Source: Mobula hypostoma
Taxonomy: Eukaryota
Assembly (NCBI RefSeq): GCF_963921235.1
Contig: NC_086108.1
Coordinates: 33,296,001 to 33,360,000 of the forward strand
DNA: 64,000 bases
Direction of reading: 5' to 3'
Shown here one piece after another: positions 5,540 through 64,000 of this stretch. How positions within the stretch are numbered: position 1 is the stretch's first letter; the number at the start of each line of letters is the position of its first letter. Position numbers and translations under genes: made by a program. The notes under the pieces are model-generated. The model saw only the letters and a list, made by a program, of their open reading frames with translations. It was not told where the DNA came from and searched no databases.

Positions 5540-22289
<16,750 letters not shown>

Positions 22290-41039: not shown

Positions 41040-41144
41040 TCTAGAATTAACCAATTGTGATGCATCCAGAATTCACTTGATCTGAAACAAATAACTTGAA
41101 ACAGACGTTGGGAAAGGCTTAACACAGTCATAGTCGTACTTTAC

Positions 41145-41357
41145 TGATCCCGGGGGAAATTGGCTTTCGTTACAGTTGCATCATAAATAATTAAATAGTA
41201 ATGAAACCATAAATAGTTAAATAGTAATATGTAAATTATGCCAGTAAATTATGAAATAAGTCCAGGACCAGCCTATTGGCTCAGGGTGTCTGACCCTCCA
41301 AGGGAGGGGTTGTAAAGTTTGATGGCCACAGGCAGGAATGACTTCCTACGACGCTCT
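41145..41357 (-). mobile_element. LINE 3' end with a (TATGAC)n-type tail; same family as 61533-61719
   Basis: Near-identical reverse complement of 61533-61719. The minus strand encodes ...RRRKSFLPVAIKLYN, a Rex1/Babar-type C-terminus. Confidence 0.75.
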
Positions 41358-49299: not shown

Positions 49300-50060
49300 T
49301 TTGCTGGCAGAATCTCAAATGGCGACAAGGAGGCGTACAGCAGTGACATAAATTGGCTGGTTGAGTGGTGTCACAACAGCAAACTTGCACTCAATGTCTG
49401 TAAGACCAAGGAATTTATTTTGGATTTCAGGAAGGAGAAGTCGGAAGAACACACACCAGTCATCACTGAGGGATCGGCGGTGGAAAGGGTGAGCAGTTTC
49501 AAGTTCCCATGTGTGAAACTATCAGAGAATCTATTCTGGGCCGAACATATTGATGCAATCACAAAGAAGGCATGCCAGCAGCTATATTCATTAGGAGTTT
49601 GAGGAGATTTGGCATGTCTTTAAAGGCTCTAGAAAATTTCTATAGATGTACCACTGATGCCTGACCGGTTGCACCATTGCCTGGTACCGAGGCTCCAATG
49701 CACAGGGTCAAAAGAAGCTACAGATTGTTGCAGACTCAGCCAGCTGAATCCTGGGCACATGTCTCCACCATTGACAACATCTTCAAATGATAGTGCCTCA
49801 AGAAGGCATCGTCCATCGTTAAGGATCCTCACCATTCAGAGAGTGCCCTCTTCTCATTACTACCATCAGGGAGAGAATACAGGAGTTTGAAACCACACAC
49901 TCAACAGCTTCTTCCCCTCCCCTATCAGATTTTTGAAAGGTCCTCTTTTGTTTTATTCCTTTTTGTAATTGATAGTAACTTTGAGTCTTGCACAGTACTG
50001 CTGCCACAAAACAACAAATTTCATGACATACATCTATGATAATAAACATGATTCTGATTC
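49300..50060 (+). mobile_element. Rex1/Babar-clade LINE fragment (further 3' fragments at about 48110-48330 and 55680-56212)
   Basis: DFRKEKSEEHTPVITEGSAVERVSSFKFPCV...HIDAITKKACQQLY; GATTCT tail. Confidence 0.82.
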
Positions 50061-51115
50061 CAAATGCAACTGAGCATCTGTTGCCCACTTGGCCAGAAGA
50101 TTACAAAGAGTCATGACCTTTCCGTGAAGAAATTTCTAACAACCTTGCTATCATTTCTTTAATAACTGAATCTAACATTTTCCATATTGTTGATGTCAGG
50201 CCAATTATTGGTCATTATTTTCTTTCACTCTCCCGTCATAAGTGGAAGGATTATATTTACTATCTTCTAATATATGAGAACTGTTCCAGGATCTTTGTGA
50301 TTTTGGAAGCTAATAACCGAATAACCAATGCATCCACTATGTCCACTTTGCCTTTTATTCATGTTTTGGGCTAATGGCATCTCTGACAAGGGAGGCACTT
50401 ATTGTCCACCCCCAAATGCTCGAGGAGCCAATGGCGTGATGCACTTTTCTTCCACAACACTTTCAGGTCAGGAATTCCAGGATATGAAGCCAGAAATGAT
50501 AAAGGAAGAGCAATTCATTTTCTAGTCAGGATAATGTGCAGCTTGGAGAAGACTCTGCAGACGGTGGCATTCCCATGTGCCTGCTGCCTTTGTCCTTCTT
50601 GTCTGTAGAGGTTGTGGATTTGAGGGGAGCTGCCAGGTTAGCCTGGGTGATATGGCATTTCATTTAGAGGTCCGTACACACTGCCGCCGCTATGTACCGG
50701 TCCTGGAAAGAATGAATATTTAAGGATAGGGTGCTAGTCAAACAGGATTTGTCCTGGATGCTGTCCTGCTTCTAAGTGCAGGATATACAATCATGCTCCT
50801 GAGTTGTGCACTGAAAGACACAACTCAGAAGTGAGGCACTCATCATCAAATAAGAATTCGCTACCTGCAGGAATGGGATTCCATTCTTTTAATTGTTCAG
50901 TTGTTGCTTAAAAGATGAATATTGTCAGTCTTTAACAATTCTTATGCTTCTAAAATTTCTTAAACAACTCAATCACAGAGTGGTTATGGCTGTGATGTTT
51001 TCTCACAGAGTCAACAGTGGAGTGGTGCAAATTGTTTAACAGTTATGTAATTGTTTGGAATCTGTGAAATCTCTCTTCCCTAACACAGTTTGTCAGCCAG
51101 CTTATGGACTAATAA

Positions 51116-52795
51116 GCAACACACATCAAAGTTGCTGGTGAACGCAGCAGGCCAGGCAGCATCTCTAGGAAGAGATACAGTCAATGTTTCGGGCCAAGAC
51201 CCTTTGTCAGGACTAACTGAAGGAAGAGCTAGTAAGAGATTTGAAAGTGGGAGGGGGGGGAGATCCAAAATGATAGGAGAAGACAGGAGGGGGAGGGATG
51301 GAGCCAAGAGCTGGACAGGTGATTGGCAAAGGGGATATGAGAGGATCATGGGACAGGAGGCCCAGGGGAGAAGGAAAAGGGGGAGGGGGGGAACCCAGAG
51401 GATGGGCAAGGGGTATAGTCAGAGAGATAGAGGGAGAAAAAGGAGAGAGAGAGAAAGAATGTGTGTATATAAATAAATAACGGATGGGGTATGAGGGGGA
51501 GTTGGGGCATTAGCAGAAGTTAAAGAAGTCAATGTTCATGCCATCAGGTTGGAGGCTACCCAGACGGAATATAAGGTGTTGTTCCTCCAACCTGAGTGTG
51601 GCTTCATCTTTACAGTAGAGGAGGCCATGAATAGACATGTCAGAATGGGAATGGGATGTGGAATTAAAATGTGTGGCCACTGGAAGATCCTGCTTTCTCT
51701 GGCGCACAGAGCGTAGGTGTTCAGCAAAACGATCTCCCAGACTGCGTCGGGTCTCGCCAATATATAGAAGGCCGCATCGGGAGCACCGGATGCAGCATAT
51801 CACCCCAGCCAACTCACAGGTGAAGTGTCGCCTCACCTGGAAGGACTGTCTGGGTCCCTGAATGGAGGTAAGGGAGGAAGTGTAAGGGCATGTGTAGCAC
51901 TTGTTCCACTTACAAGGATAAGTGCCAGGAGGGAGATCAGTGGGGAGGGATGGGGGGGATGAATGGACAAGGGAGTCGCGTAGGGAGCGATCCTTGTGGA
52001 AAGCGGGGTGGGGGAGGGAAAGATGTGCTTAGTGGTGGGATCCTGTTGGAGGTGGCGGAAGTTACGGAGAATAATACAGTATGTTGGACCCGGAGGCTGG
52101 TGGGGTGGTAGGTGAGGACCAGGGGAACCCTATTCCTAGTGGGGTGATGGGAGGATGGAGTGAGAGCAGATGTGCGTGAAATGAGGGAGATGCATTTGAG
52201 AGCAGAGTTGATGGTGGAGGAAGGAAAGCCCCTTTCTTTAAAAACTGGCCTCCTGTACTGTGAAGATGAAGCCAACCTCAGGTTGGAGGAACAACACCTT
52301 ATATTCCGTCTGGGTAGCCTCCAACCTGATGGCATGAACATTGACTTCTCTGACTTCCACTAATGCCCCACCTCCCCCTCGTACCCCATCTGTTATTTAT
52401 TTATATGCACACATTCTTTCTCTCTCTCTCCTTTTTCTCCCTCTGTCCCTCTGACTATACCCCTTGCCCATCCTCTGGGTTTTTTTCTCCCCCTCCCCCT
52501 TTTCCTTCTCCCTAGGCCTCCTGTCCCATGATCCTCTCATATCCCTTTTGCTTATCACCTGTCCAGCTCTTGGCTCCATCCCTCCCCCTCCTGTCTTCTC
52601 CTATCATTTTGGATCTCCCCTCCCCCTCCCACTTTCAAATCTCTTACTACTCTTCCTTCAGTTAGTCCGGACGAAGGGTCTCGGCCCGAAACGTCGACTG
52701 TACCTCTTCCTAGAGATGCTGCCTGGCCTGCTGCGTTCACCAGCAACTTTGATGTGTGTTGCTTGAATTTCCAGCATCTGCAGAATTCCTCGTGT
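51116..52795. mobile_element. Well-preserved Penelope-like element with about 510-bp inverted arms. The GIY-YIG domain is on - (51510-51836) and its C-terminus is repeated on + (52244-52363)
   Basis: ORF 51510-51836: FTCELAGVICCIRCSRCGLLYIGETRRSLGDRFAEHLRSV...VATHFNSTSHSHSDM...RLEEQHLIFRLGSLQPDGMNIDF. 14-bp TSD TTATGGACTA(A/G)TAA (51102-51115, 52796-52809). Hammerheads at 51179-51214 (-) and 52664-52699 (+). Confidence 0.92.
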
Positions 52796-55700
52796 TTATG
52801 GACTAGTAACTTATTTTTGGCAGATGATTGGCCAATAAAGGAGAAAACTTAAAATCAGGGTGGTGAAGAGAAGTGAGGCTTTCTTTTGAATGTAAGGGGC
52901 GTCTTTGTCAAAAAACACAGTAACAAACTCAGCAAATATGGATCAACATATGTTGTGGACCAGGGCTGTAGAAGGAGGATAGAAAATCTAACAAGTGGTG
53001 ATGGAAACTTGCATGATGTTGAGACATTAATTTTGAAGACTGTTCATGTTTTGTGAATAGAGATATTTTTGAAACCATAAACAGCTTAGTGCTGTGAATT
53101 TCTTAGGGACATGCTAAGATTATGGTATATACCATCTAAATATAAGCTTTTGTTATGTGTTTGAACACTTAAATGTGTAGAAACATACCATCGTAGTGTT
53201 GCATAGCAGTAGTGAGGCAATTTTTAAAATAGACTGAGGACAGGTTGATTCATTCTCTTTGCAACTTTGTTTTCGACTGGCAGATCAGATGTAAAAATTG
53301 TCTTTATTCAAGTTAAACAGAGTAAGGGTACAGTGTTTCTCTCTTTATCCTAAGTCATTATATATCCTGTTAGTTCTAAGAGTGCTTAATTTTAACAAGA
53401 GTCTTTGGGCTATTTGGGCTGTTTTGCGATATCAAGTCACCTTATTTTTTAGTCTGAAGGTATGACGAATATCACATAGAAGCCCGGGGTGGGGTGTTTG
53501 TTTTTGCCAAGCTCAGCTTTCTAACACAACAGCTAATACTTCCAGGGATCAAGGAGTTGTTATTGAGTAAATTAAACTTACAACCATTCTTTGGTCAGCT
53601 TCTTGTCATAAACAAGAACCTGTCTTCAGTTCTTAATGTAAATTGCTGGTAATAAAAAGTCTGACAGCTTTGCAAGCAAACATCACTGTCTATGCAACCT
53701 GAAGGTGGCTGCTCAAGAGATGCAGTTTTGTTAATTGGGCCCACATCAAACCAGACAACACTGCCGAAGTTATTTGGTTCAAGGAAGTTTGCAGACCAGA
53801 CTGATACTATCACCTAGCACATCAAATAGTGGATCTATCGACGCTTGGGAGATTTGCATCCTCAGAGAGTCAGATTTCATAGCATTAATTTTAGGTGTCT
53901 GGGATCTCTTTTCCCTAAAGCTTTTAGACCATCTGTGTGAAATGGTATATTAGAAAAAGCATATGCATATGAAATCACAAAGTAGCAAATTATAGTATAA
54001 ACGTAAGAGAGCAGTCATGGTTGTTAGGAATGGTCAAGGAACAAGAAGAATGACAGAAAGATGGGGGTGACTAGAATCTACTCCACTGCCTTCAATTTCT
54101 GTGATGGATGACTTGTTCATCTGCAACTTGTTGGTATATCTTTTTAGCATAGGAATTGTGCCTAAGTTTTGGAAATGCTGTATGTTTTAGACTTTGTAAT
54201 TTGGAAATTGTTTATAAGATAGAAAATCTCTTTGTTTTAAACGTGCGCTAAGAATTTAAAATGTGCTTTAAGAATTTTATCTAAATTTAAACATGTATCA
54301 CTAAAATAAATAAACTATATTTAAAGTATTTTGTTGGATGGGAGTATCTCCTCCTCGGTGGTGGGAGTGGGGGTGGGGAAGGTTGCCTTCTTCTCAAACA
54401 GTGGGCATCGGCAGCTAAACTTGCTACATATACTGGGCCTTTAGAAAGCTTAGTTCTCAACAAATTTATCAAAAACAAAATGTCCAAACACTCTGAAAAT
54501 CATTCCATTATTCAGTGCATAAAAATGAGGAAAAAACGCTTGTTTGGCACATTGCACAAATGCCACCTTTATGAATCATGGAAAGTGTGCCTTTTAGAAA
54601 ACAAGAAAAACAATGTCACAAATAATAGTATAACATTTCACAAAAAACATACTCAACCATTTTTGAGATCTATATGGAAATGGCTGGTGGCTTGCTTTCC
54701 AATTCTTGTCTTCATGTGGGACCTTGGGCATTAAGAACAATACTTACTGTATGCATTTGAGTAACAACTTTCACAATAACAATGTGCGAGTTCAGTACTT
54801 TGCATGGCGTTCTTGAGCTCTCTGAGAGTTAAGTGTTTTTTTTTTAAATTCTGCGCAGAACTGCTGGCATTTACAGCGAACTCTAGCACAACCTGCTTTT
54901 CAATAATATCAGGCAGCCAGCATTGCCCAGAAAACTGACAAGAATTCTCCTATTTATGTGTCAGATGGTTCCCAATCCTGTCCCTTACTCTAATGCATGG
55001 GGTTGATACGAGGCCTCATCTAAAGAAAAGGCTGCAAGTTTCCCTTCAAATTTTTATCTAATTGTTTTTTGATATTTACGATTAAATCTGCTTACACTTT
55101 ATCAAACACTAAATTGAAGGACTGGAAATTGCTGCATGATAGTGATCATCCATGGCTTGCTTATGGTCCTATTGCCTGTTGATTTAAAACCTTTCTACTT
55201 CCCACTACATCTCTGCTTATCGCCTTCCAGCCTCTGAACCTACCGCTAACCACAACTCTTCCCTCCCACCCTAACCCACCTCCACCTGCTTCTTTCTTTC
55301 TTTCTCTCTCTCTCTGGGCCTGTGCAGAAGTTGCTTGACCCAGTAAGCTCCTTCGGAGGTTTGCTCCAGATTATAGCATCTGTAGACTGCCTACCTTAAA
55401 TCTGTGCCCTTTGGTTATTGAACATCTTGTCAGCAATTACAATTTCTCCTTATTTACTCTTCAAAATCCTTCAAGAAGTTGGAGTACCTGCCTCATTTAT
55501 TGATTACTACTTGCAAAATCCTGGCGATTGCAAATGGCTGTAAAGCATACCTACATTGAAATCACCTCTACACTTCTAAAGCAGCTTCAATCATTTGTTT
55601 CTTTTCTCCAGTGAAATCAGGGGTCTGAAGAGGTGTGAACCAAAGATTTTGGTTGGTTGCCAGATCACAGCTAGTAATCCTACAAAAGGTAGTGGATTAA

Positions 55701-56747
55701 GTCCAGTACATCACGAGTTAAGCTCTCCCATCCGTTGAGCACATCTACATGAAACGCTGTTTGAAACACTACATGAAAAGCAGCATCCATCTTCAGAGAT
55801 CCCCACCACCCAGGCTCTGCTCTTTTCTTGCTGGTGCGATCAGGTAAAAGGTACAAGAGCATCAGGACTCGCACCACCAGGTTCAAAAACAGTTACTACC
55901 CCTCAACCATTAGGCTGTTGAACAGAAGGGGATAACTATGCTCACTTGCCAATCCATTATGATGTTCCTGCAAACAATGATCTCACTTTAAGGACTCTTT
56001 ATCTCATTATCGTATGTTCTCATTATTTATTGCTATTTATTTATATTTGCATTTGCACAATTTGTCGTCTTCTGCCTTCTGGTTGATCTTTCATTGATCC
56101 TGTTATAGTTCCTATTCTATAGATTTGCTGAATATGCCCGCAAGAAAATGAATTTTAGGGTTGTATATGGTGACATATATGTACTCTGATAATAACATTT
56201 ACTTTGAACTTTAATAATACAGCAGGAATTGCTGGGAGCAAGTAAACCTTTTAGTACAATTGTCAGCATTCATTCTTAAACTATTCAACTAGTCACTATG
56301 TGACTAAGCTGCAAAGAATGCTGCTTTGTAGGTCTACATCACAGCATCACTTGTGTCAGGAAATAAGACTGTTGGCCAGAAAGAGCTACAGTCTACAAAT
56401 CAGTGAATTCAAATGAAGCGAGAACAGTGGAAACAGACAGACCAATTACCTTTGTTCTGGCCATGAGGGAGGAGATGGAGACTGATGAGAGGAGAACTGG
56501 ATGAATTATATATGTAGAGGATGAAGATGGCCAGGAAAGGTAAATTATAACTTTAAAGTTACCCAACCCCATGAGTGCATAGGCAGCAGAAGTGGTTAGC
56601 CACCCCGAACATTTCCTACCCAGATCAGTCATACATGCTGATAATATGTACATTTGTAATGGCCCAACAGAACATTTGCCTCTTTGGGAAGAAAGAGGGT
56701 TTGTTTCAGCTGATGGAAAGCTTTTCCAATCTGCTGTCCGGTTTGAA

Positions 56748-58058
56748 GTCAAGTCAAGTCAAGTCAAGTCAAGTCACTTTTTATTGTCATTTCGACCATA
56801 ACTGTTGGTACAGTACACAGTAAAAATGAAACGATGTTTTTCAGGACCATGGTGCTACATGAAACAATACAAAAACTACACTGAACGACGTAAAACAACA
56901 CAAAAACTACACTAGACTACAGACCTACCCAGGACTACATAAAGTGCACAAGACAGTGCAGGCAGTGCAAAAAATAAACAAGACAATAGGCACAGTAGAG
57001 GGCAGTAGGCTGGTGTCAGTCCAGGCTCTGGGTATTGAGGAGTCTGATGGCTTGGGGGAAGAAACTGTTACATAGTCTGGTCGTGAGAACCCAAATGCTT
57101 CAGTGCCTTTTGCCAGATGGCAGGAGGGAGAAGAATTTGTATGAGGGGTGTGTGGGGTCCTTCATAATGCTGTTTGCTTTACGGATGCAGCGTGTGGTGT
57201 AAATGTCTGTAATGGTGGGAAGAGAGACCCCGATGATCTTCTCAGCTGACCTCACTATCCGCTGCAGGGTCTTGCGATCCGAGATGGTGCAATTTCTGAA
57301 TCAGGCAGTGATGCAGCTGCTCAGGATGCTCTCGATACATCCTCTGTAGAACGTGGTGAGGATGGGGGTGGGAGATGGACTTTTCTCAGCCTTCGCAGAA
57401 AGTAGAGACACTGCTGGGCTTTCTTTGTTATGGAGCTGGTGTTGAGGGACCAGGTGAGATTCTCCACTAGGTGAACACCAAGAAATTTGGTGCTCTTAAC
57501 AATCTCTATGAAGGAGTCGATGTTCAGCAGAGAGTGGTTGCTCCTTGTCCTCCTGAAGTCAACAACTATCTCTTTTGTTGACATTCAGAGACTTGTTATT
57601 GGCTCTGCACCAGTCCGTTAGCCGCTGCACCTCCTCTCTGCTGATGAGACCCACCACGATCGTGTCATCGGCAAACTTGATGATGTGGTTCGAGCTGTGT
57701 GTTGCAGCACAGTCGTGGGTCAGCAGAGTGAACAGCAGTGGACTGAGCACACAGCCCTGGGGGGCCCCCGTGCTCAGTGTGATGGTGTTGGAGATGCTGC
57801 TTCCAATCCGGACTGACTGAGGTCTCCCAGTCAGGAAGTCTAGGATCTCGTTGCAGAGGGAGGTGTTCAGGCCCAGTAGGCTCAGCTTTCCAATCAGTTT
57901 CTGAGGAATGATTGTGTTGAATGCTGAACTGAAGTCTATGAACAGCATTCGAATGTACGTGTCTTTTTTGTCCAGGTGGGTTAGGGCCAGGTGGAGGGTG
58001 ATGGCAATGGTGTCGTCTGTTGAACAGTTGGGATGGTATGCGAACTGCAGGGGGTCCA
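56748..58058 (-). mobile_element. Rex1/Babar-clade LINE inserted in the ERV RNase H
   Basis: [18 protein letters not shown]...[20 protein letters not shown]...IIKFADDT; (TTGAC)n tail at 56746-56775. Confidence 0.93.
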
Positions 58059-58741
58059 GTCAAGAAGCAAAGGAAAAGAATATGGAGTCATGAAGGTGAA
58101 AGCCCACTCAAAATTATCCCCTGAGGGGAATACGAAGGCTGAACTAGTGAAGGAGGGTGCTTCAAATGGGCAGGAATGGTAGCTGCAAGCTGGGGAAATG
58201 AGAAGGCAGAAGGAACAACAGTTTAAGGTTATGGATTTAACCAAGGAGCAGAGGAAAGATAAACAATATAAAAGTTAATAGAAGGAGCAGGGTCAGAAAT
58301 GTACAAAGAGCACAAGGGTGTACATGTTAAAGATTGAATAGTCCTCTATGAAGGGGAGTTTGCGGTCTCAGAGGGAGGAAGAAATCAGATGATCCACGGT
58401 ACCATGATTTATGGTGACACCAGGGAGCCAACAGCACCCTGGAAAAGATAAAGGAGATATGTTAGTGGCCTAGGATGAAGAATTGTTTGATTTGTGCACA
58501 ATATGATTCTGATAAGAATGTAAAGAAAGGAGCCCTCTAACATACCAGACCAATGGAGGGGCCTTGGACTAATTTGCAGATATATTATGTTAGACCTTTG
58601 TCACCCGCCCCTGGAGGGTACAAATATATTTTTGTAGTGGTAGATACTTTCACCAAGTGGTGGAAGTTTTCCCGACTAAGACATATACAACCAACTGTAG
58701 AAATCTTATTAGAAAGGATCTTCACTCATTGGGGATTACTT

Positions 58742-59895
58742 CAGATCAAAATCAGGTTTATTATCACTGGCATGTGATGTGAAATTTGTTAACTTAGCAG
58801 CAGTAGTTCAATGCAATACATAATCTAGAAGAAAGAAAAAATAAAATAAAAATAATAATAATAATGAATAAACAAGAAAATCAATTACAGTATACGTATA
58901 TTGAATAGGTTAAAAATGTGCAAAAAACAGAAATACTGTATATTAAAAAAGTGAGGTAGTGTTCAAGGATTCAATGTCCATTTAGGAATTGGATGGCAGA
59001 GGGGAAGGAGCTATTTCCGAATCGCTCAGTGTGTGTGCCTTCAGGCTTCTGTACCTCCTACCTGATGGTAACAGTGAGAAAAGGGCACACCCTGGGTGCT
59101 GGAGGTTCTTAATAATGGATGCTGCCTTTCTGAGACACCGCTCCCTGAAGATGTCCTGGGTACTTTGTAGGCTAGTACCCAAGATGGAGCTGACTAGATT
59201 TACAACCCTCTGCAGCTTCTTTTGGTCCTGTGCAGTAGCCCCTCCATACCAGACAGTGATGCAGCCTGTCAGAATGCTCTCCACAGTACAACTATAGAAG
59301 TTTTTTGAGTGCATTTGTTGACATGCCAATTCTCTTCAAACTCCTAATGAAGTATAGCCGATGTCTTGCCTTCTTTATAGCTACATTGATATGTTGGGAC
59401 CAGGTTAGATCCTCAAAGATTTTGACACTCAGGTACTTGAAACTGCTCATTCTCTCCACTTCTGATCCCTCTATGAGGATTGGTATGTGTTCCTTCATCT
59501 TACCCTTCCTGAAGTACACAATCAGCTCTTTCGGCTTACTGATGGTGAGTGCCAGGTTGTTGCTGTGGCACCATTCCACTAGTTGGCATATCTTACTCCT
59601 GTACGCTCTCTCGTCACCACCTGAGATTCTACCAACAATGGTTGTATCGTCAGCAAATTTATAGATGGTATTTGATATGGCTAGCCACACAGTCATTGGT
59701 ATATAGAGAGTAGGGCAGTGGGCTAAGCACACGCCCCTGAGATGCGCTAGTGTTGCTCATCACCGAGGAGGATATGTTATCAGCAATCAGTACAGATTGT
59801 GGTCTTCCGGTTAGGAAGTTGAGGATCCAATTGCAGAGGGAGGTACAGAGACCCAGGTTCTGCAACTTCTCAATCAGGATTGTGGGAATGATGGT
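58742..59895 (-). mobile_element. Rex1/Babar-clade LINE inserted in the ERV integrase
   Basis: [59 protein letters not shown]. The integrase resumes at 59896. Confidence 0.93.
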
Positions 59896-60899
59896 ATAGA
59901 ATCGGATCAAGGTACACATTATACAGCCCAGATAATGCAAGATGTCGTGGCACCTTTAGGGATCGAGCAGAGATTTCATATGCTCTATAGACCACCGTCT
60001 ATTGGAATTGTGGAAAGAATGAACCGAACATTGAAAAATATGATGGCCAAAATGGTGCAACAACATGGAACAACTGGGTAGATAGTTCTGCTTTATGTAC
60101 TGATTATAATAAAGGAATACAAAGGAATCATCGATGGGTTACACCCCTTATAAACTCATAACTGGAAGAGACAGAGAGGGCTGGATGAGTTGTTAGATTA
60201 GATTTGCCAGAACCCGAATTAGATGGGAATGTGTCAGAAAAGTGGGAACAATAATTGGTAGAGATAGTGAAAGAGGCCAATTATGTGGCACCCCATCAAC
60301 TACGAAAGACAAGGCAAACAGACTTAAGGCCTACTTTGACTCAAAAGTCAGTCCCAGGAATTAAGTCCAGGAAAAGGTGATGATTAGAATACACTAATCC
60401 ACCTCATTTTTAAATCCAAGGTTTGCAGGGTCCTATGAAATTATAGACAAAGCAAGTCTATCAGTATACAGGGTACTGACTTCTCCAGAAAAAAGCAGAT
60501 GGTACCACATCACTCAGTTGAAGTTAGTGGTGGAGAAACCGGAATGCCATCATCATCGGCACGGAACAAACATGGTAAGCCTGATTCGGAAGATTTGAGA
60601 TTGGAACAAGTAGATGGTGACAGATTTGACCAAGGAAGAATTTTTCCATTCTCTCATTCTGAGAATCAGGTGAGTTGTGTCAAGAAAAGGAAAAAAAAAC
60701 AGGTTGGTTCCTGCCTCCCCAAACCTGAAATGAAATTGGGTGGGGAAAAAAAAGATGGATGGCTTGAGTCCAAAGACAGTTGGGAGGCTGGATTGGATGG
60801 GCTAGAAATCAAGTAGCAAATATGGACTTAAAATGATTTATGATTGAAACTTGAAACTGGAAATAAGAGCAGAAATTACAGGTTTTATTTGACATGACG

Positions 60900-62747
60900 A
60901 GAATAATGTAAAATTAAGTACCCCACAACCTCAATTAGCTGAAACTATACCAGAATATAAACGTAGTAAGTCCCAACATAACACAAAGTTGTCAGTGTTT
61001 TTGGAAATTCAGAGGAATTTGTCGCTTTGGTACCAGGGTACCAGCAAGTGCTGGTTATTTTTAATCTAACTGAAATAGTGGTGCCTGTATGGTGCTCATC
61101 TACAATGGCACAGTTTTTTACTCATTTTCTTGGGAGACAACTGAGCAGGAGTGAGTTTAAATCAGTCACAAAATAGAAAGAAGAGAGGACTATTGGAATT
61201 AGTGGAAGTATGTTATGCATCAAAATTTGCAATGGTTAGTAATTTAGATACAGCAGAATTAGGAAGCCCAATATAGTCCCTCCAGCAGAAGGTGCGAGAT
61301 ACAACTGGAGAAAATTACTGGAATGAGATACAGACTTACCATATTGGTCAGAGTGCATCATAGGTATCTCTGGATTCAATTATATTTAAAAGCCCCCAAG
61401 ATACCGTGAATTTGATAATTGACCGCATAGACCTCATATCTGAGGGAAAGCATAAAGCTGAGATCTCTGCTACATATACTAGTTAGTTGCTCGCCATGAT
61501 TGGCACAAATTTATTTCATCTTGATACATCAAACTTTACAACTCCTCCCTTGGAGGGTCAGACACCCTGAGCCAATAGGTTGGTCCTGGACTTATTTCCT
61601 GGCGTAATTTACATATTACTATTTAATTATTTATGGTTTTATTACTATTTAATTATTTATGGTGTAACTGTAACGAAAACCAATTTCCCTCGGGATCAAT
61701 AAAGTATGACTATGACTACACATCAAGTACCAAATTGGGTATCAGATGATCAACTAAAACAAGGGGTTGGGGAAGGTGCCCTTGTGTCATATAAGAATTA
61801 TTACACTAACCAATAGAGTACTGGTACATGTGATTACAGAAAGGAAGGTTTTATGTCAGTGTGGTATTTCATATTCCCCAACCTGGAAATAATTTAATCC
61901 ACTCTTTGTAAAGACTTCACCATGTGGACAAATATCACAAGGAGAATTGGATATTCTTAAGTAACCCACCAGCACCTGCCATTGTTATGAGTGTTACTGG
62001 GAAATGGATAGATTTATCAAGATATCATAAAAGGGGACTACTCACTGGGCTTGTCCAGAAGAGATGATAAAACAGAAACTTCTGAATTGTGGTTTCAGTA
62101 CTTGTGAGAAATATTCATTGTCTATTCTGCCTGTAAATGAGTTTTTCCTTACCATATGCATTGGTGGGACAGACATATTGTAGCAAAAGCAACAAGGGAT
62201 GGAAGTAGAGTCCTTTGGAAAGTCATAATATTGCAATTGGGAGGATGACTTTAGATTTGCCTATCGGAGGGCAAGTTTTGTCTCAGCCACCAATAATTGC
62301 AGTAACAAAGGAGAACGTACCAATCCAACAAACTGATAAGGGTCAATATCTATGGGACTATGTTACCAAGTTGCCACCGATTCTTCTTTTTTGAATCCAG
62401 ATTCGGCACATGTTGTGGAGGAGGCAAAGGAGATAATCCATTAGTGGTCTAAATATACAAAAGTTAGTAAGACATTTTGTTAATGCAAATAAAATATTGA
62501 GTGACTCAGACTCTTTGGAGAAATTTTGGAATTGGAGATCAAATGTTGAAATACATCCCTGGCTGACTCTAGGATAGTATTGTATGCTGCAGTAATATCA
62601 ATTTTATGTAAGCTGATAATGGTATTGTTCAATGTGTATCAGCTTAGAAGGTGGAATTCTGAAATTGTGCAAAAGGAAGAGGATGATGGTTTTGTAATAC
62701 AGGGAACGGGATTGTCTGTAGACAGAGTGTATGAATTCAGTAAGTAA
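60900..62747 (+). pseudogene. ERV env remnant (class I fusion glycoprotein), frameshifted
   Basis: FVALVPGYQQVLVIFNLTEIVVPVWCS; furin site RKKR (61175-61186) followed by GLLELVEVCYASKFAMVSNLDTAEL; Cys-rich middle (THWACPEE...LNCGFSTCE); KFWNWRSNVEIHPWL; TM helix IVLYAAVISILCKLIMVLFNV (62574-62636); short tail ending TAA at 62745-62747. Start not identifiable. Confidence 0.72.
61533..61719 (+). mobile_element. Short LINE 3' end inserted in the ERV env
   Basis: Matches 41145-41357. AATAAA followed by TATGACTATGACT; ACATCAA on both flanks. Confidence 0.8.
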
Positions 62748-64000
62748 TTGGTACCTTTGTCTCTGTGATACAAGTGTCACACAACTGCCGGGGGTTCATG
62801 GCAGTTCTGTGAGTAGTCAATAGAACAGAGGAGGATATTGATCCTAAGATAAATATCTTTGGATCAAGAGGAGAGAGATTTGGCCCAAAAGAACTACAGA
62901 ATTCGAATGAAAGTGGAAGCAGACAGACCAATTTCCTTTGTTCTTGCCATGAAGGAGGCGATAGAAGCTGTCATTTTATGAAGTGACAGTGTTCTCCATT
63001 TTGTGAGTCAGTCACTTGGTTTGATCAGTGTTTTAAAGTAGACACAATAATGCCCCAGGTAATCTGCTGAACTAGAGATAATTTCCAAATAAGAAATTAT
63101 TGGCAAGGTGTTCTTTGGTTGGATATAGCATGCAGGTTTTTGACTGTTGGGGTCTGTATCTGTTCTGCAAGATTCAATCTGGTTGCTGATTGAGAACAAA
63201 GAGCCATAAATTGCTGATTGTCACTTGCTGGGAAGAGGGTAATAAATGGATGCTGGCTTGAAGCAGAGCCAATAAAAAAGTGTGTTAAAGCTCAGACATG
63301 TGATCTACAGCCAATGACACTGCAAAGCAATATTTGAATTGCTAAGGAATGAGTATAAAAGCAGAGGTCTTCACATACAGCGTAGCAAAGACTCAGTAGG
63401 AGGTTCACCATTGTGAATGTGAGGTGCCCCATGGATGTGTGGAGATTTGAAATGGGACTACGAGGAACACGTGACCAGCAGCAGAAACTCCATTTTCACT
63501 AGTATTATATTCTTGGTTCTTTGACTGTTCATGGAAGGTCAGGTAAACCCAGTAGGTGTGCACACACGTACTTGGTTGTGTAAGTTCACTTGTTTTTCCG
63601 TTGAGACAATAAAGGTACTTGTCGGGAATTACAGATTCTCTCTGTGCCTCCCTGATAATTATTACAAGGGATGATTCTTGTAACAAAGCTAACATTTTCT
63701 TTTTGAAAATGATGATTCAACATAATTTCTCTGCAGAAATAGACACACAAAACGAAGATATATTGGGAAATTAATGGAATTGTAGAGATGATGCCGTTGA
63801 CTGTGGATTGCTTTTGCAGCTTTCTGTGGTTTTGCCAAGAGGACACGGCACCATGGGAGATGCTGCCTTTAATAGGATGTTAAAGTGAGTTTTATTTACC
63901 CCTCTCAAGTGGACAAAGATCTCAGATTCTGTTTGAAAGTGCGTTTGTTTCTCCCCAGTGTCCTGGTTGATATCGATCCTCAACAAACAACATTAAAAAA

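Follow-up and report, generated by a model that had tools for sequence, protein, structure and literature searches.

The window, a stretch of 64,000 nucleotides of Mobula hypostoma (NC_086108.1, positions 33,296,001 to 33,360,000 of the forward strand), contains the remains of an endogenous retrovirus. Our best explanation, which we hold with good confidence, is that this virus likely belongs to the snakehead retrovirus (SnRV) branch, that its Env is predicted to be of the paramyxovirus/pneumovirus F type with an extra N-terminal head lost in the window copy, and that a sister env was likely captured by the host. The window copy itself is dead and makes no product: over the 327 codons that align to an open paralogue frame, its env showed 5 stop codons and 10 frame-shifting indels. 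The env paralogues in the genome comprised 89 matches with 70–88% identity (40 scored of 2,200 candidates), a set that exceeds chance. The original prediction had named loss of the frame among the paralogues as grounds for its rejection; the paralogues keep a conserved reading frame across env.

Structure of the window locus and the env deletion

We compared the window with the C21 copy of its family, which carries a natural 548-residue open frame (P0001) with the cleavage site at residue 301. The C21 copy (C21:139528700-139540300, L021-L022) is a younger provirus with LTRs that are 93% alike (K2P 0.07), and all of its genes are broken. The features of the window locus are as follows.

56368..56479, plus strand: remnant of the 5' LTR start (identity 89% to the 3' LTR of the window and 87% to the beginning of the C21 LTR)
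56483..56736, plus strand: RNase H fragment (75% to positions 7609-7880 of the C21 copy)
56737..58061, minus strand: inserted LINE-type fragment and further repeat sequence, splitting RNase H (gap in the C21-copy alignment; non-LTR RT motifs in minus-strand frames)
58062..58745, plus strand: last part of RNase H and beginning of integrase (79% to the C21 copy; Pfam Integrase_H2C2 at E 5e-4, below cut-off)
58746..59893, minus strand: second inserted LINE-type fragment, splitting integrase (alignment gap; RT-like frames on the minus strand)
59894..60910, plus strand: integrase core and C-terminus, pol-env spacer, and first few env codons (76% to the C21 copy)
60910..60911, plus strand: deletion junction, ~610 bases lost (comparison with the C21 copy; junction common to 9 of 28 other distinct loci)
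60911..61186, plus strand: linker and F2-like segment, ending in a furin-type RKKR (tblastn to P0001 and P0004)
61187..61532, plus strand: N-terminal part of the F1-like subunit, with the fusion-peptide position and a long HRA-like helix (family profile 74.5 bits at 61163-61528; helix at 312-396 in the P0004 model)
61533..61719, no strand assigned: 187-bp interspersed repeat within env (7-bp target-site duplication, gap in the paralogue matches)
61720..62570, plus strand: F1-like Cys-rich beta domains, HRB-like second helix, and Trp-rich membrane-proximal segment at 62524-62562 (family profile 85.9 bits at 61843-62589; many frame breaks)
62571..62747, plus strand: TM helix (62571-62636), then a short cytoplasmic tail (P0004 shows a hydropathy peak at the equivalent position)
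62866..63653, plus strand: polypurine tract (~62866-62878) and 3' LTR (72% to the C21 LTR over 62957-63653)

The two minus-strand inserts are presumably LINE fragments, and the labels F1, F2, HRA, HRB, and furin site follow common usage. The local description in the original prediction was partly confirmed. The RKKR site was read at 61175-61186, followed by GLLELV, and lies 675 nt (225 codons; at most ~220 had been estimated) after the integrase WYHITQL motif (60500). Between the cleavage site and the first base of the TM (62571), where ~1200 nt or ~400 residues had been predicted, 1,197 nt (~399 codons) were measured, the 187-bp insert excluded. The Cys-rich middle and the Trp-rich WNW..HPW segment before the TM were in place, and the absence of CX6CC and of an immunosuppressive motif held for the open natural frames P0001 and P0004. 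A 90% identical copy of the 187-bp repeat was located at window 41126-41318. The tail has ~37 codons in the ray family. In 59894..60910, the Pfam matches stayed below the cut-off (rve, E 0.03; SH3_Tf2-1, E 0.04). Further upstream, window 51510-52378 contains the ends of a retroelement, which we take to be Penelope-like (GIY-YIG-type), that are repeated elsewhere in the window.

Relative to the C21 copy, the ~610 bases missing at 60910/60911 correspond to the signal-peptide region and an N-terminal head domain. Undeleted copies have ~280–300 residues before the cleavage site, with ~190 extra residues ahead of the F2-like part. The short N-terminal subunit of the window copy, which the original prediction had read as the native layout of the Env, is thus an artefact of the deletion. 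The argument from that layout fails, because the native N-terminal subunit is long. Among 28 other loci matching on both sides of the junction (distinct loci after three duplicate rows were dropped), nine shared the junction, 18 had at least 461 extra bases, and one had 194; these loci were drawn by two different queries and their ratio is not a genome frequency.

The stretches upstream of eight head-deleted loci were inspected. Protease and RT were absent in all eight, RNase H and integrase were kept in six, and LTR, gag, RNase H, and integrase occurred together in three. In the window, RNase H directly follows the LTR remnant; the intervening gag, protease, and RT are lacking, and gag-RT gave no match in window 50000-64000. 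The lack of protease and RT in the head-deleted loci, together with the LTR remnant joined to RNase H, suggests a non-autonomous derivative. The window copy would be a member of this derivative, which was likely copied by intact helpers and then decayed. Counting the window and nine loci, the derivative without protease-RT and env head appears to have spread as a subfamily of its own. Other long read-through frames occur in the genome, e.g., one of 616 aa on C36. P0002 and P0003 of the horn shark Heterodontus francisci are close to the window family (62–73% in the best local match); they have a different internal gap, and the family is shared between sharks and rays.

Fold and sequence relatives of the Env

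The fold was modelled on P0004, the complete 733-codon frame of a sister family (C2, L060), and not on the window copy; P0004 is an intact relative, 46% identical to P0001 in the core (336 columns). The AF2 model, obtained from an alignment of 38 rows, one of them Loki, had a mean pLDDT of 61 and a pTM of 0.43. Its quality was poor for residues 1–203 and for the loop of the fusion peptide; most of residues 211–590 were modelled with fair or good quality, and most blocks there reached 70–94. All 43 PDB matches listed for the model were pneumovirus or paramyxovirus F proteins (best E 1.4e-11), those of RSV, parainfluenza virus, and henipavirus being the best, and foamy Env structures were absent among them. 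The best VIA match was hPIV3 F (Z 12.0, 323 residues, rmsd 9.0), with both F2 and F1 covered, and the top three Atlas clusters carried Fusion_gly (0.93–0.94). Against F structures, the TM-score was ~0.5 by target length, with an rmsd of 6–14 and an identity of 8–15%. The model contained the strand and helix of F2 and the HRA, beta domains, and HRB of F1, and its part matching 60911..61186 aligned to F2 of hPIV3 and RSV F. These matches, from the AlphaFold and fold-search check that the original prediction had proposed, support its F-like reading, and the window-family Env is predicted to be a fusion protein of the paramyxo/pneumovirus F type.

The BFVD set of predicted viral structures gave a broader range of matches to the P0004 model, including lispivirus glycoproteins and baculovirus F. 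The Envs of walleye dermal sarcoma virus (E 4e-10) and walleye epidermal hyperplasia virus 1 (E 7e-9) were also matched, with low TM-scores; walleye-virus Envs ranked 16 and 21, and feline foamy Env ranked 35, below F proteins. The best BFVD match was A0A384ZVF2 (928 aa); that it belongs to a toad ERV was a guess for which a search gave no support.

The original prediction had named best matches to TLV_coat or foamy Env as refuting outcomes, and neither arose: no TLV_coat match was obtained, and foamy Env ranked below F proteins. Pfam gave no Fusion_gly match for the window frames, P0001, P0004, P0005, or P0006. The three env frames of the window gave no Pfam family. PDB sequence searches with P0001, P0004, and the family alignment A1 returned nothing under E 0.2, and a weak GP41 match over HRB-TM (E 0.016–0.5) remained below the cut-off. 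With CX6CC, the immunosuppressive domain, and TLV_coat all absent, the features of gamma-type Env and of syncytins were not found.

By analogy with F, the Env would work as follows. The precursor, with a signal peptide, would form a trimer, and furin would cleave it into two subunits, as its fold suggests. The outer subunit would consist of the ~190-residue head, a Thr/Pro-rich linker, and the F2-like segment, and the F1-like subunit of the fusion peptide, HRA, Cys-rich beta domains, HRB, Trp-rich segment, TM, and short tail. Most family rows conserve two cysteines (253 and 377 in P0004) that likely link the subunits, as in F. The long HRA helix would project the fusion peptide outwards, HRB would fold back, and the resulting helical hairpin would fuse the membranes, a mechanism established for RSV, parainfluenza virus, and foamy Env (PMC11468914). 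The head is a variable N-terminal module on a stalk and, as a guess from this position, may be the receptor-binding part, replacing the separate attachment protein of paramyxoviruses. For the head domain, AF2 on 14 rows gave a pLDDT of 30, and no Atlas match exceeded 0.78, which provides leads only.

The ray Env thus resembles paramyxovirus/pneumovirus F (PDB 1ztm, 3rki, and 8tve) in the predicted F2/F1 core over P0004 215-596 and in cleavage directly before the fusion peptide, whereas it differs in its low identity to F, in an N-terminal head that belongs to the Env itself and replaces the separate attachment protein, and in its retroviral context. The original prediction had also seen relevance to exchange of fusion proteins with negative-strand RNA viruses; a recent exchange is not shown at 8–15% identity to F structures.

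A search of 1.84 billion proteins with P0004 returned 36 matches. Ten of these were looked up: eight were from sharks (Scyliorhinus, Mustelus, Pristiophorus, and Chiloscyllium), one was from a frog, and the remaining one was P0037. P0037 was found at E 1.5e-5, its sequence reads like published Loki Env proteins, and its own Fusion_gly match (E 4.7e-6) lay below the cut-off. A family profile built without P0037 scored P0037 at 64 bits, compared with at most 4.3 bits for 300 shuffles, and scored the window frames at 86 and 75 bits. The family profile in this way finds teleost Loki Env at 63–64 bits, with the best shuffle at 4. These scores support a distant homology between the Env and Loki Env, as the original prediction had proposed. 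Loki Env is only 21–23% identical and falls, on a long branch, outside the proteins of sharks, rays, and the frog. Relatives of the Env are present in a frog and in no fewer than five shark genera, and they are deeply diverged from one another.

The cleavage site is at residue 279 in P0004, 301 in P0001, and 112 in P0037. In Loki Env, the F2-like part directly follows the signal peptide and the site falls at ~110–130 (starts compared in 20 of 23 entries, one a fragment); P0001 and P0004 do not have this arrangement. The heads of the two ray families are 20–24% identical to each other, and those of one shark and one frog protein are Ig-like, as judged by eye and from the name given by one source. 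P0013 (Chiloscyllium, 739 aa) and P0015 (Pelodytes, 723 aa) are complete Envs of this type whose head differs and looks Ig-like, and P0015 and P0023 may represent an intact amphibian env. In P0017 and P0031, env pieces are fused to ankyrin/ion-channel and F-box gene models; they may be annotation artefacts or exonised env.

Affiliation of the virus

The RT was taken from other copies of the family because the window has none. LPQGFHNSP was found in the RT of three env-linked proviruses; the corresponding motif is LPQGFHASP in SnRV RT, and in the published alignment PFG occupies this position in each of the 24 Loki RTs. Identities were counted by hand over ~251 columns between one in-frame RT copy and four named RTs, with an error of a few identities either way, and amounted to 122 for SnRV (~49%), ~94 for WDSV, 85 for Loki-Sau (~34%), and 84 for SFV (~33%). 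An RT tree of 23 rows, with no named Loki, SnRV, or foamy row, left the position of the family unplaced. Gag has a coiled-coil start, judged from sequence, and one CCHC knuckle, and SnRV Gag is described with a coiled coil and one zinc knuckle (PMC2717909). The nearest Pol proteins are ~51–53% identical in RT and come from sources that include coelacanth and frogs; they bear the automatic name NYNRIN-like, which is no test of integrase grouping. The RT motif, the hand counts, and the Gag features indicate that the virus likely belongs to the SnRV branch. SnRV-related ERVs are known across vertebrates (clade Huo, Xu et al. 2018, PMC6001957) and from a chimaera (CmiERV lineage I, Han 2015, PMC4422223).

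In regards to SnRV and clade Huo, the ray family shares the RT motifs, the hand-counted identity of ~49%, the coiled-coil Gag with one zinc knuckle, and the tether before RNase H. It differs in its primer site, which in the C21 copy matches tRNA-Asn, in its tail of ~37 codons against 136 residues in SnRV (PMC12193657), and in that no accessory genes were seen; the likeness is drawn from RT and Gag, not from Env.

The original prediction regarded the element as lokiretrovirus-like, which would make it the first lokiretrovirus in cartilaginous fish. Several features are compatible with this view. The Env is homologous to Loki Env, sharing the signal peptide, RXKR, fusion peptide, coiled coil, TM, and F-type core, and the dual RNase H in pol is also shared (PMC7947760). 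In Pol of the family copies, RT_RNaseH (a Ty3-like tether) is followed by a second RNase_H, as expected of Loki, and the coiled-coil start of gag recalls the smc gene of some Loki elements. Furthermore, the screen of Wang and Han, which recorded Loki in none of the chondrichthyan genomes, covered only six of these and no myliobatiform (PMC7947760). However, tether and second RNase H are shared with other retroviruses and are not confined to Loki (PMC7947760), coiled-coil Gag is described for SnRV too (PMC2717909), and the ray Env differs from Loki Env in its ~190 extra N-terminal residues, longer HRB, Trp-rich segment, and host, its 21–23% identity and long branch being accompanied by Loki Env starts without a head. 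The RT motif and the hand-counted identities, and not a tree of named rows, indicate that the virus is not a lokiretrovirus. We consider a true lokiretrovirus very unlikely, and this part of the original prediction was not sustained.

A foamy-like ERV with a reduced foamy Env is less likely still. It could be suggested from foamy RT, which led the PDB sequence matches (E 4e-46, with the MLV type at 3e-42), and from the F core of foamy Env (PMC11468914) together with the BFVD match at rank 35; however, that PDB list has no SnRV-type RT, and the hand count gave ~33% to SFV against ~49% to SnRV. The CCHC knuckle in Gag likewise argues against a spumavirus, which would be without it (PMC2717909). 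Foamy Env resembles the ray Env in being a retroviral Env with an F scaffold and an added module, but the foamy binding domain lies between the F2-like part and the cleavage site, i.e., between the subunits (Fernandez et al. 2024, PMC11468914). In the ray Env, only ~70 residues separate the start of the F2-like segment from the cleavage site and the extra domain stands before this segment, an N-terminal arrangement named for coronavirus spike in the same paper.

The virus may also be a recombinant, in which an SnRV-type gag-pol acquired the env of a lokiretrovirus or of an RNA virus, the head being a later addition. Retroviruses of fish and amphibians frequently exchange their env (10.1101/2021.11.23.469661), and Loki Env is the only protein of known kind that was reached by sequence search. 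The deep divergence of the Envs among sharks and the frog and their distance from Loki nevertheless fit old descent, and the presence of walleye-virus and foamy Envs among the F-like matches suggests that the F type may be the ancestral state of Env in several lines of fish retroviruses. We therefore hold recombination to be rather unlikely; it differs from our best explanation, an SnRV-branch virus with its own F-type Env, only in the time at which env arrived.

The intact sister env

The proposed search of the genome for intact copies was successful in the sister family. An env with 733 open codons is located at C2:126459313-126461514 (L060:922-3123). Its LTRs are 81% alike (K2P 0.22); between them, pol is reduced to scraps, and the longest open stretch in the gag-pol region is 157 codons. 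The nearest paralogues are 81–86% identical in aligned letters and are broken in 14 of 14 cases, with ~14 stops and 16 frameshifts per 733 codons. None of 5,000 frames stayed open in a simulation with 10% random substitution. The dN/dS value was 0.40 between the sister env and its siblings (14 pairs) and 0.68 among the siblings (77 pairs), from pairwise counts and not a codon model, consistent with purifying selection on the sister env. This contrast alone proves no host selection, because the younger window-family copy behaved similarly (0.36 against broken copies, 0.51 among them), and evidence of age is needed alongside.

Full-length proteins of 745 residues are annotated in the stingrays Hypanus sabinus and Hemitrygon akajei (XP_059838750.1 and XP_072911529.1) and are 93% identical to P0004 and 96% identical to each other. 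Both open with nine residues that the Mobula genome encodes in an exon ~1.6 kb ahead of the 5' LTR. The exon ends in a GT donor, and its frame continues at an AG acceptor immediately preceding env, 9.4 kb further along. This upstream exon sits in a separate interspersed repeat. The shared nine-residue start from an exon outside the provirus points to one locus across species. P0007 (Hypanus sabinus LOC132400333) is a partial second copy of the intact env, possibly a local duplicate, since its contig equals in length that of the full gene. A copy of the repeat that supplies the upstream exon also lies at window 54086-54147, 2.2 kb upstream of the window LTR remnant, probably by chance; a viral leader at this position was ruled out, the sequence being another interspersed-repeat copy.

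Run X19, from another organism and RNA only by guess, gave contigs that cover L060 911-3398 and none upstream; a loose contig end at the AG acceptor fits the upstream exon. A match of 2,165 bases had 108 differing letters, and in the long contig indels were listed only behind the stop codon. Within the frame, 16 of the 36 differences listed were silent (pN/pS 0.36; 40 of 609 rows). Run X9 covers parts of the sister env at a depth of 3–5 and is given no weight as evidence, and no RNA run was listed for the intact env.

These observations make it probable that the sister env is a host-captured gene. It could instead have stayed open through youth or luck, and the low dN/dS of the younger window-family copy, the guessed RNA nature of X19, and a host function that is only predicted all leave room for this. 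The LTR divergence (K2P 0.22 against 0.07 in the younger copy), the decayed gag-pol region, the simulation, the 14 broken siblings, and the full-length proteins in two stingray genera speak against it, and we give chance preservation a minor share of the probability. With host capture as the preferred reading, a role in the uterus of live-bearing rays is a guess.

The sister env resembles syncytins, percomORF, and chondrichthyan syncytin-like Envs in being open in a decayed provirus, shared between species, and probably spliced; unlike syncytins, it is of the F type and without a CX5-7C(C) motif or immunosuppressive domain. Two 2026 screens for chondrichthyan env used syncytin queries and required CX5-7C(C) and the immunosuppressive domain (10.64898/2026.05.06.723177, PMC12813294); because these motifs were required, both would pass over the ray Env family. 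An anamniote Env survey was confined to gamma and beta types (10.1101/2021.11.23.469661), and Loki Env was already known as F-like (PMC7947760). In the literature covered, outside which most subscription journals and the candidate tables of the screens lie, we found no F-type Env in SnRV-related ERVs and no captured F-type ray env.

The window locus is dead and matters only as a pointer to its family and to the intact sister gene. Wang and Han considered four possible origins of retroviral Env but were unable to decide between them (PMC7947760). An F-type Env that is homologous in sequence to Loki Env yet sits on the backbone of an ordinary retrovirus, beside the F-type foamy Env, favours an F-type Env in the common ancestor and later replacement, and the head-in-front layout would be a third solution by which retroviruses have equipped F with a binding module. 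In live-bearing rays, the sister gene offers a concrete candidate for an F-type fusogen captured by the host, missed by design in the two 2026 screens. We lean towards the view that stingrays carry a host-captured env on the RSV/measles F fold, with an exon outside the provirus, derived from a snakehead-type line with interchangeable N-terminal heads. If this is true, it would be a syncytin-like gene of a fusion class invisible to syncytin screens, and F-type Env would be deep and widespread among retroviruses and not a Loki oddity.
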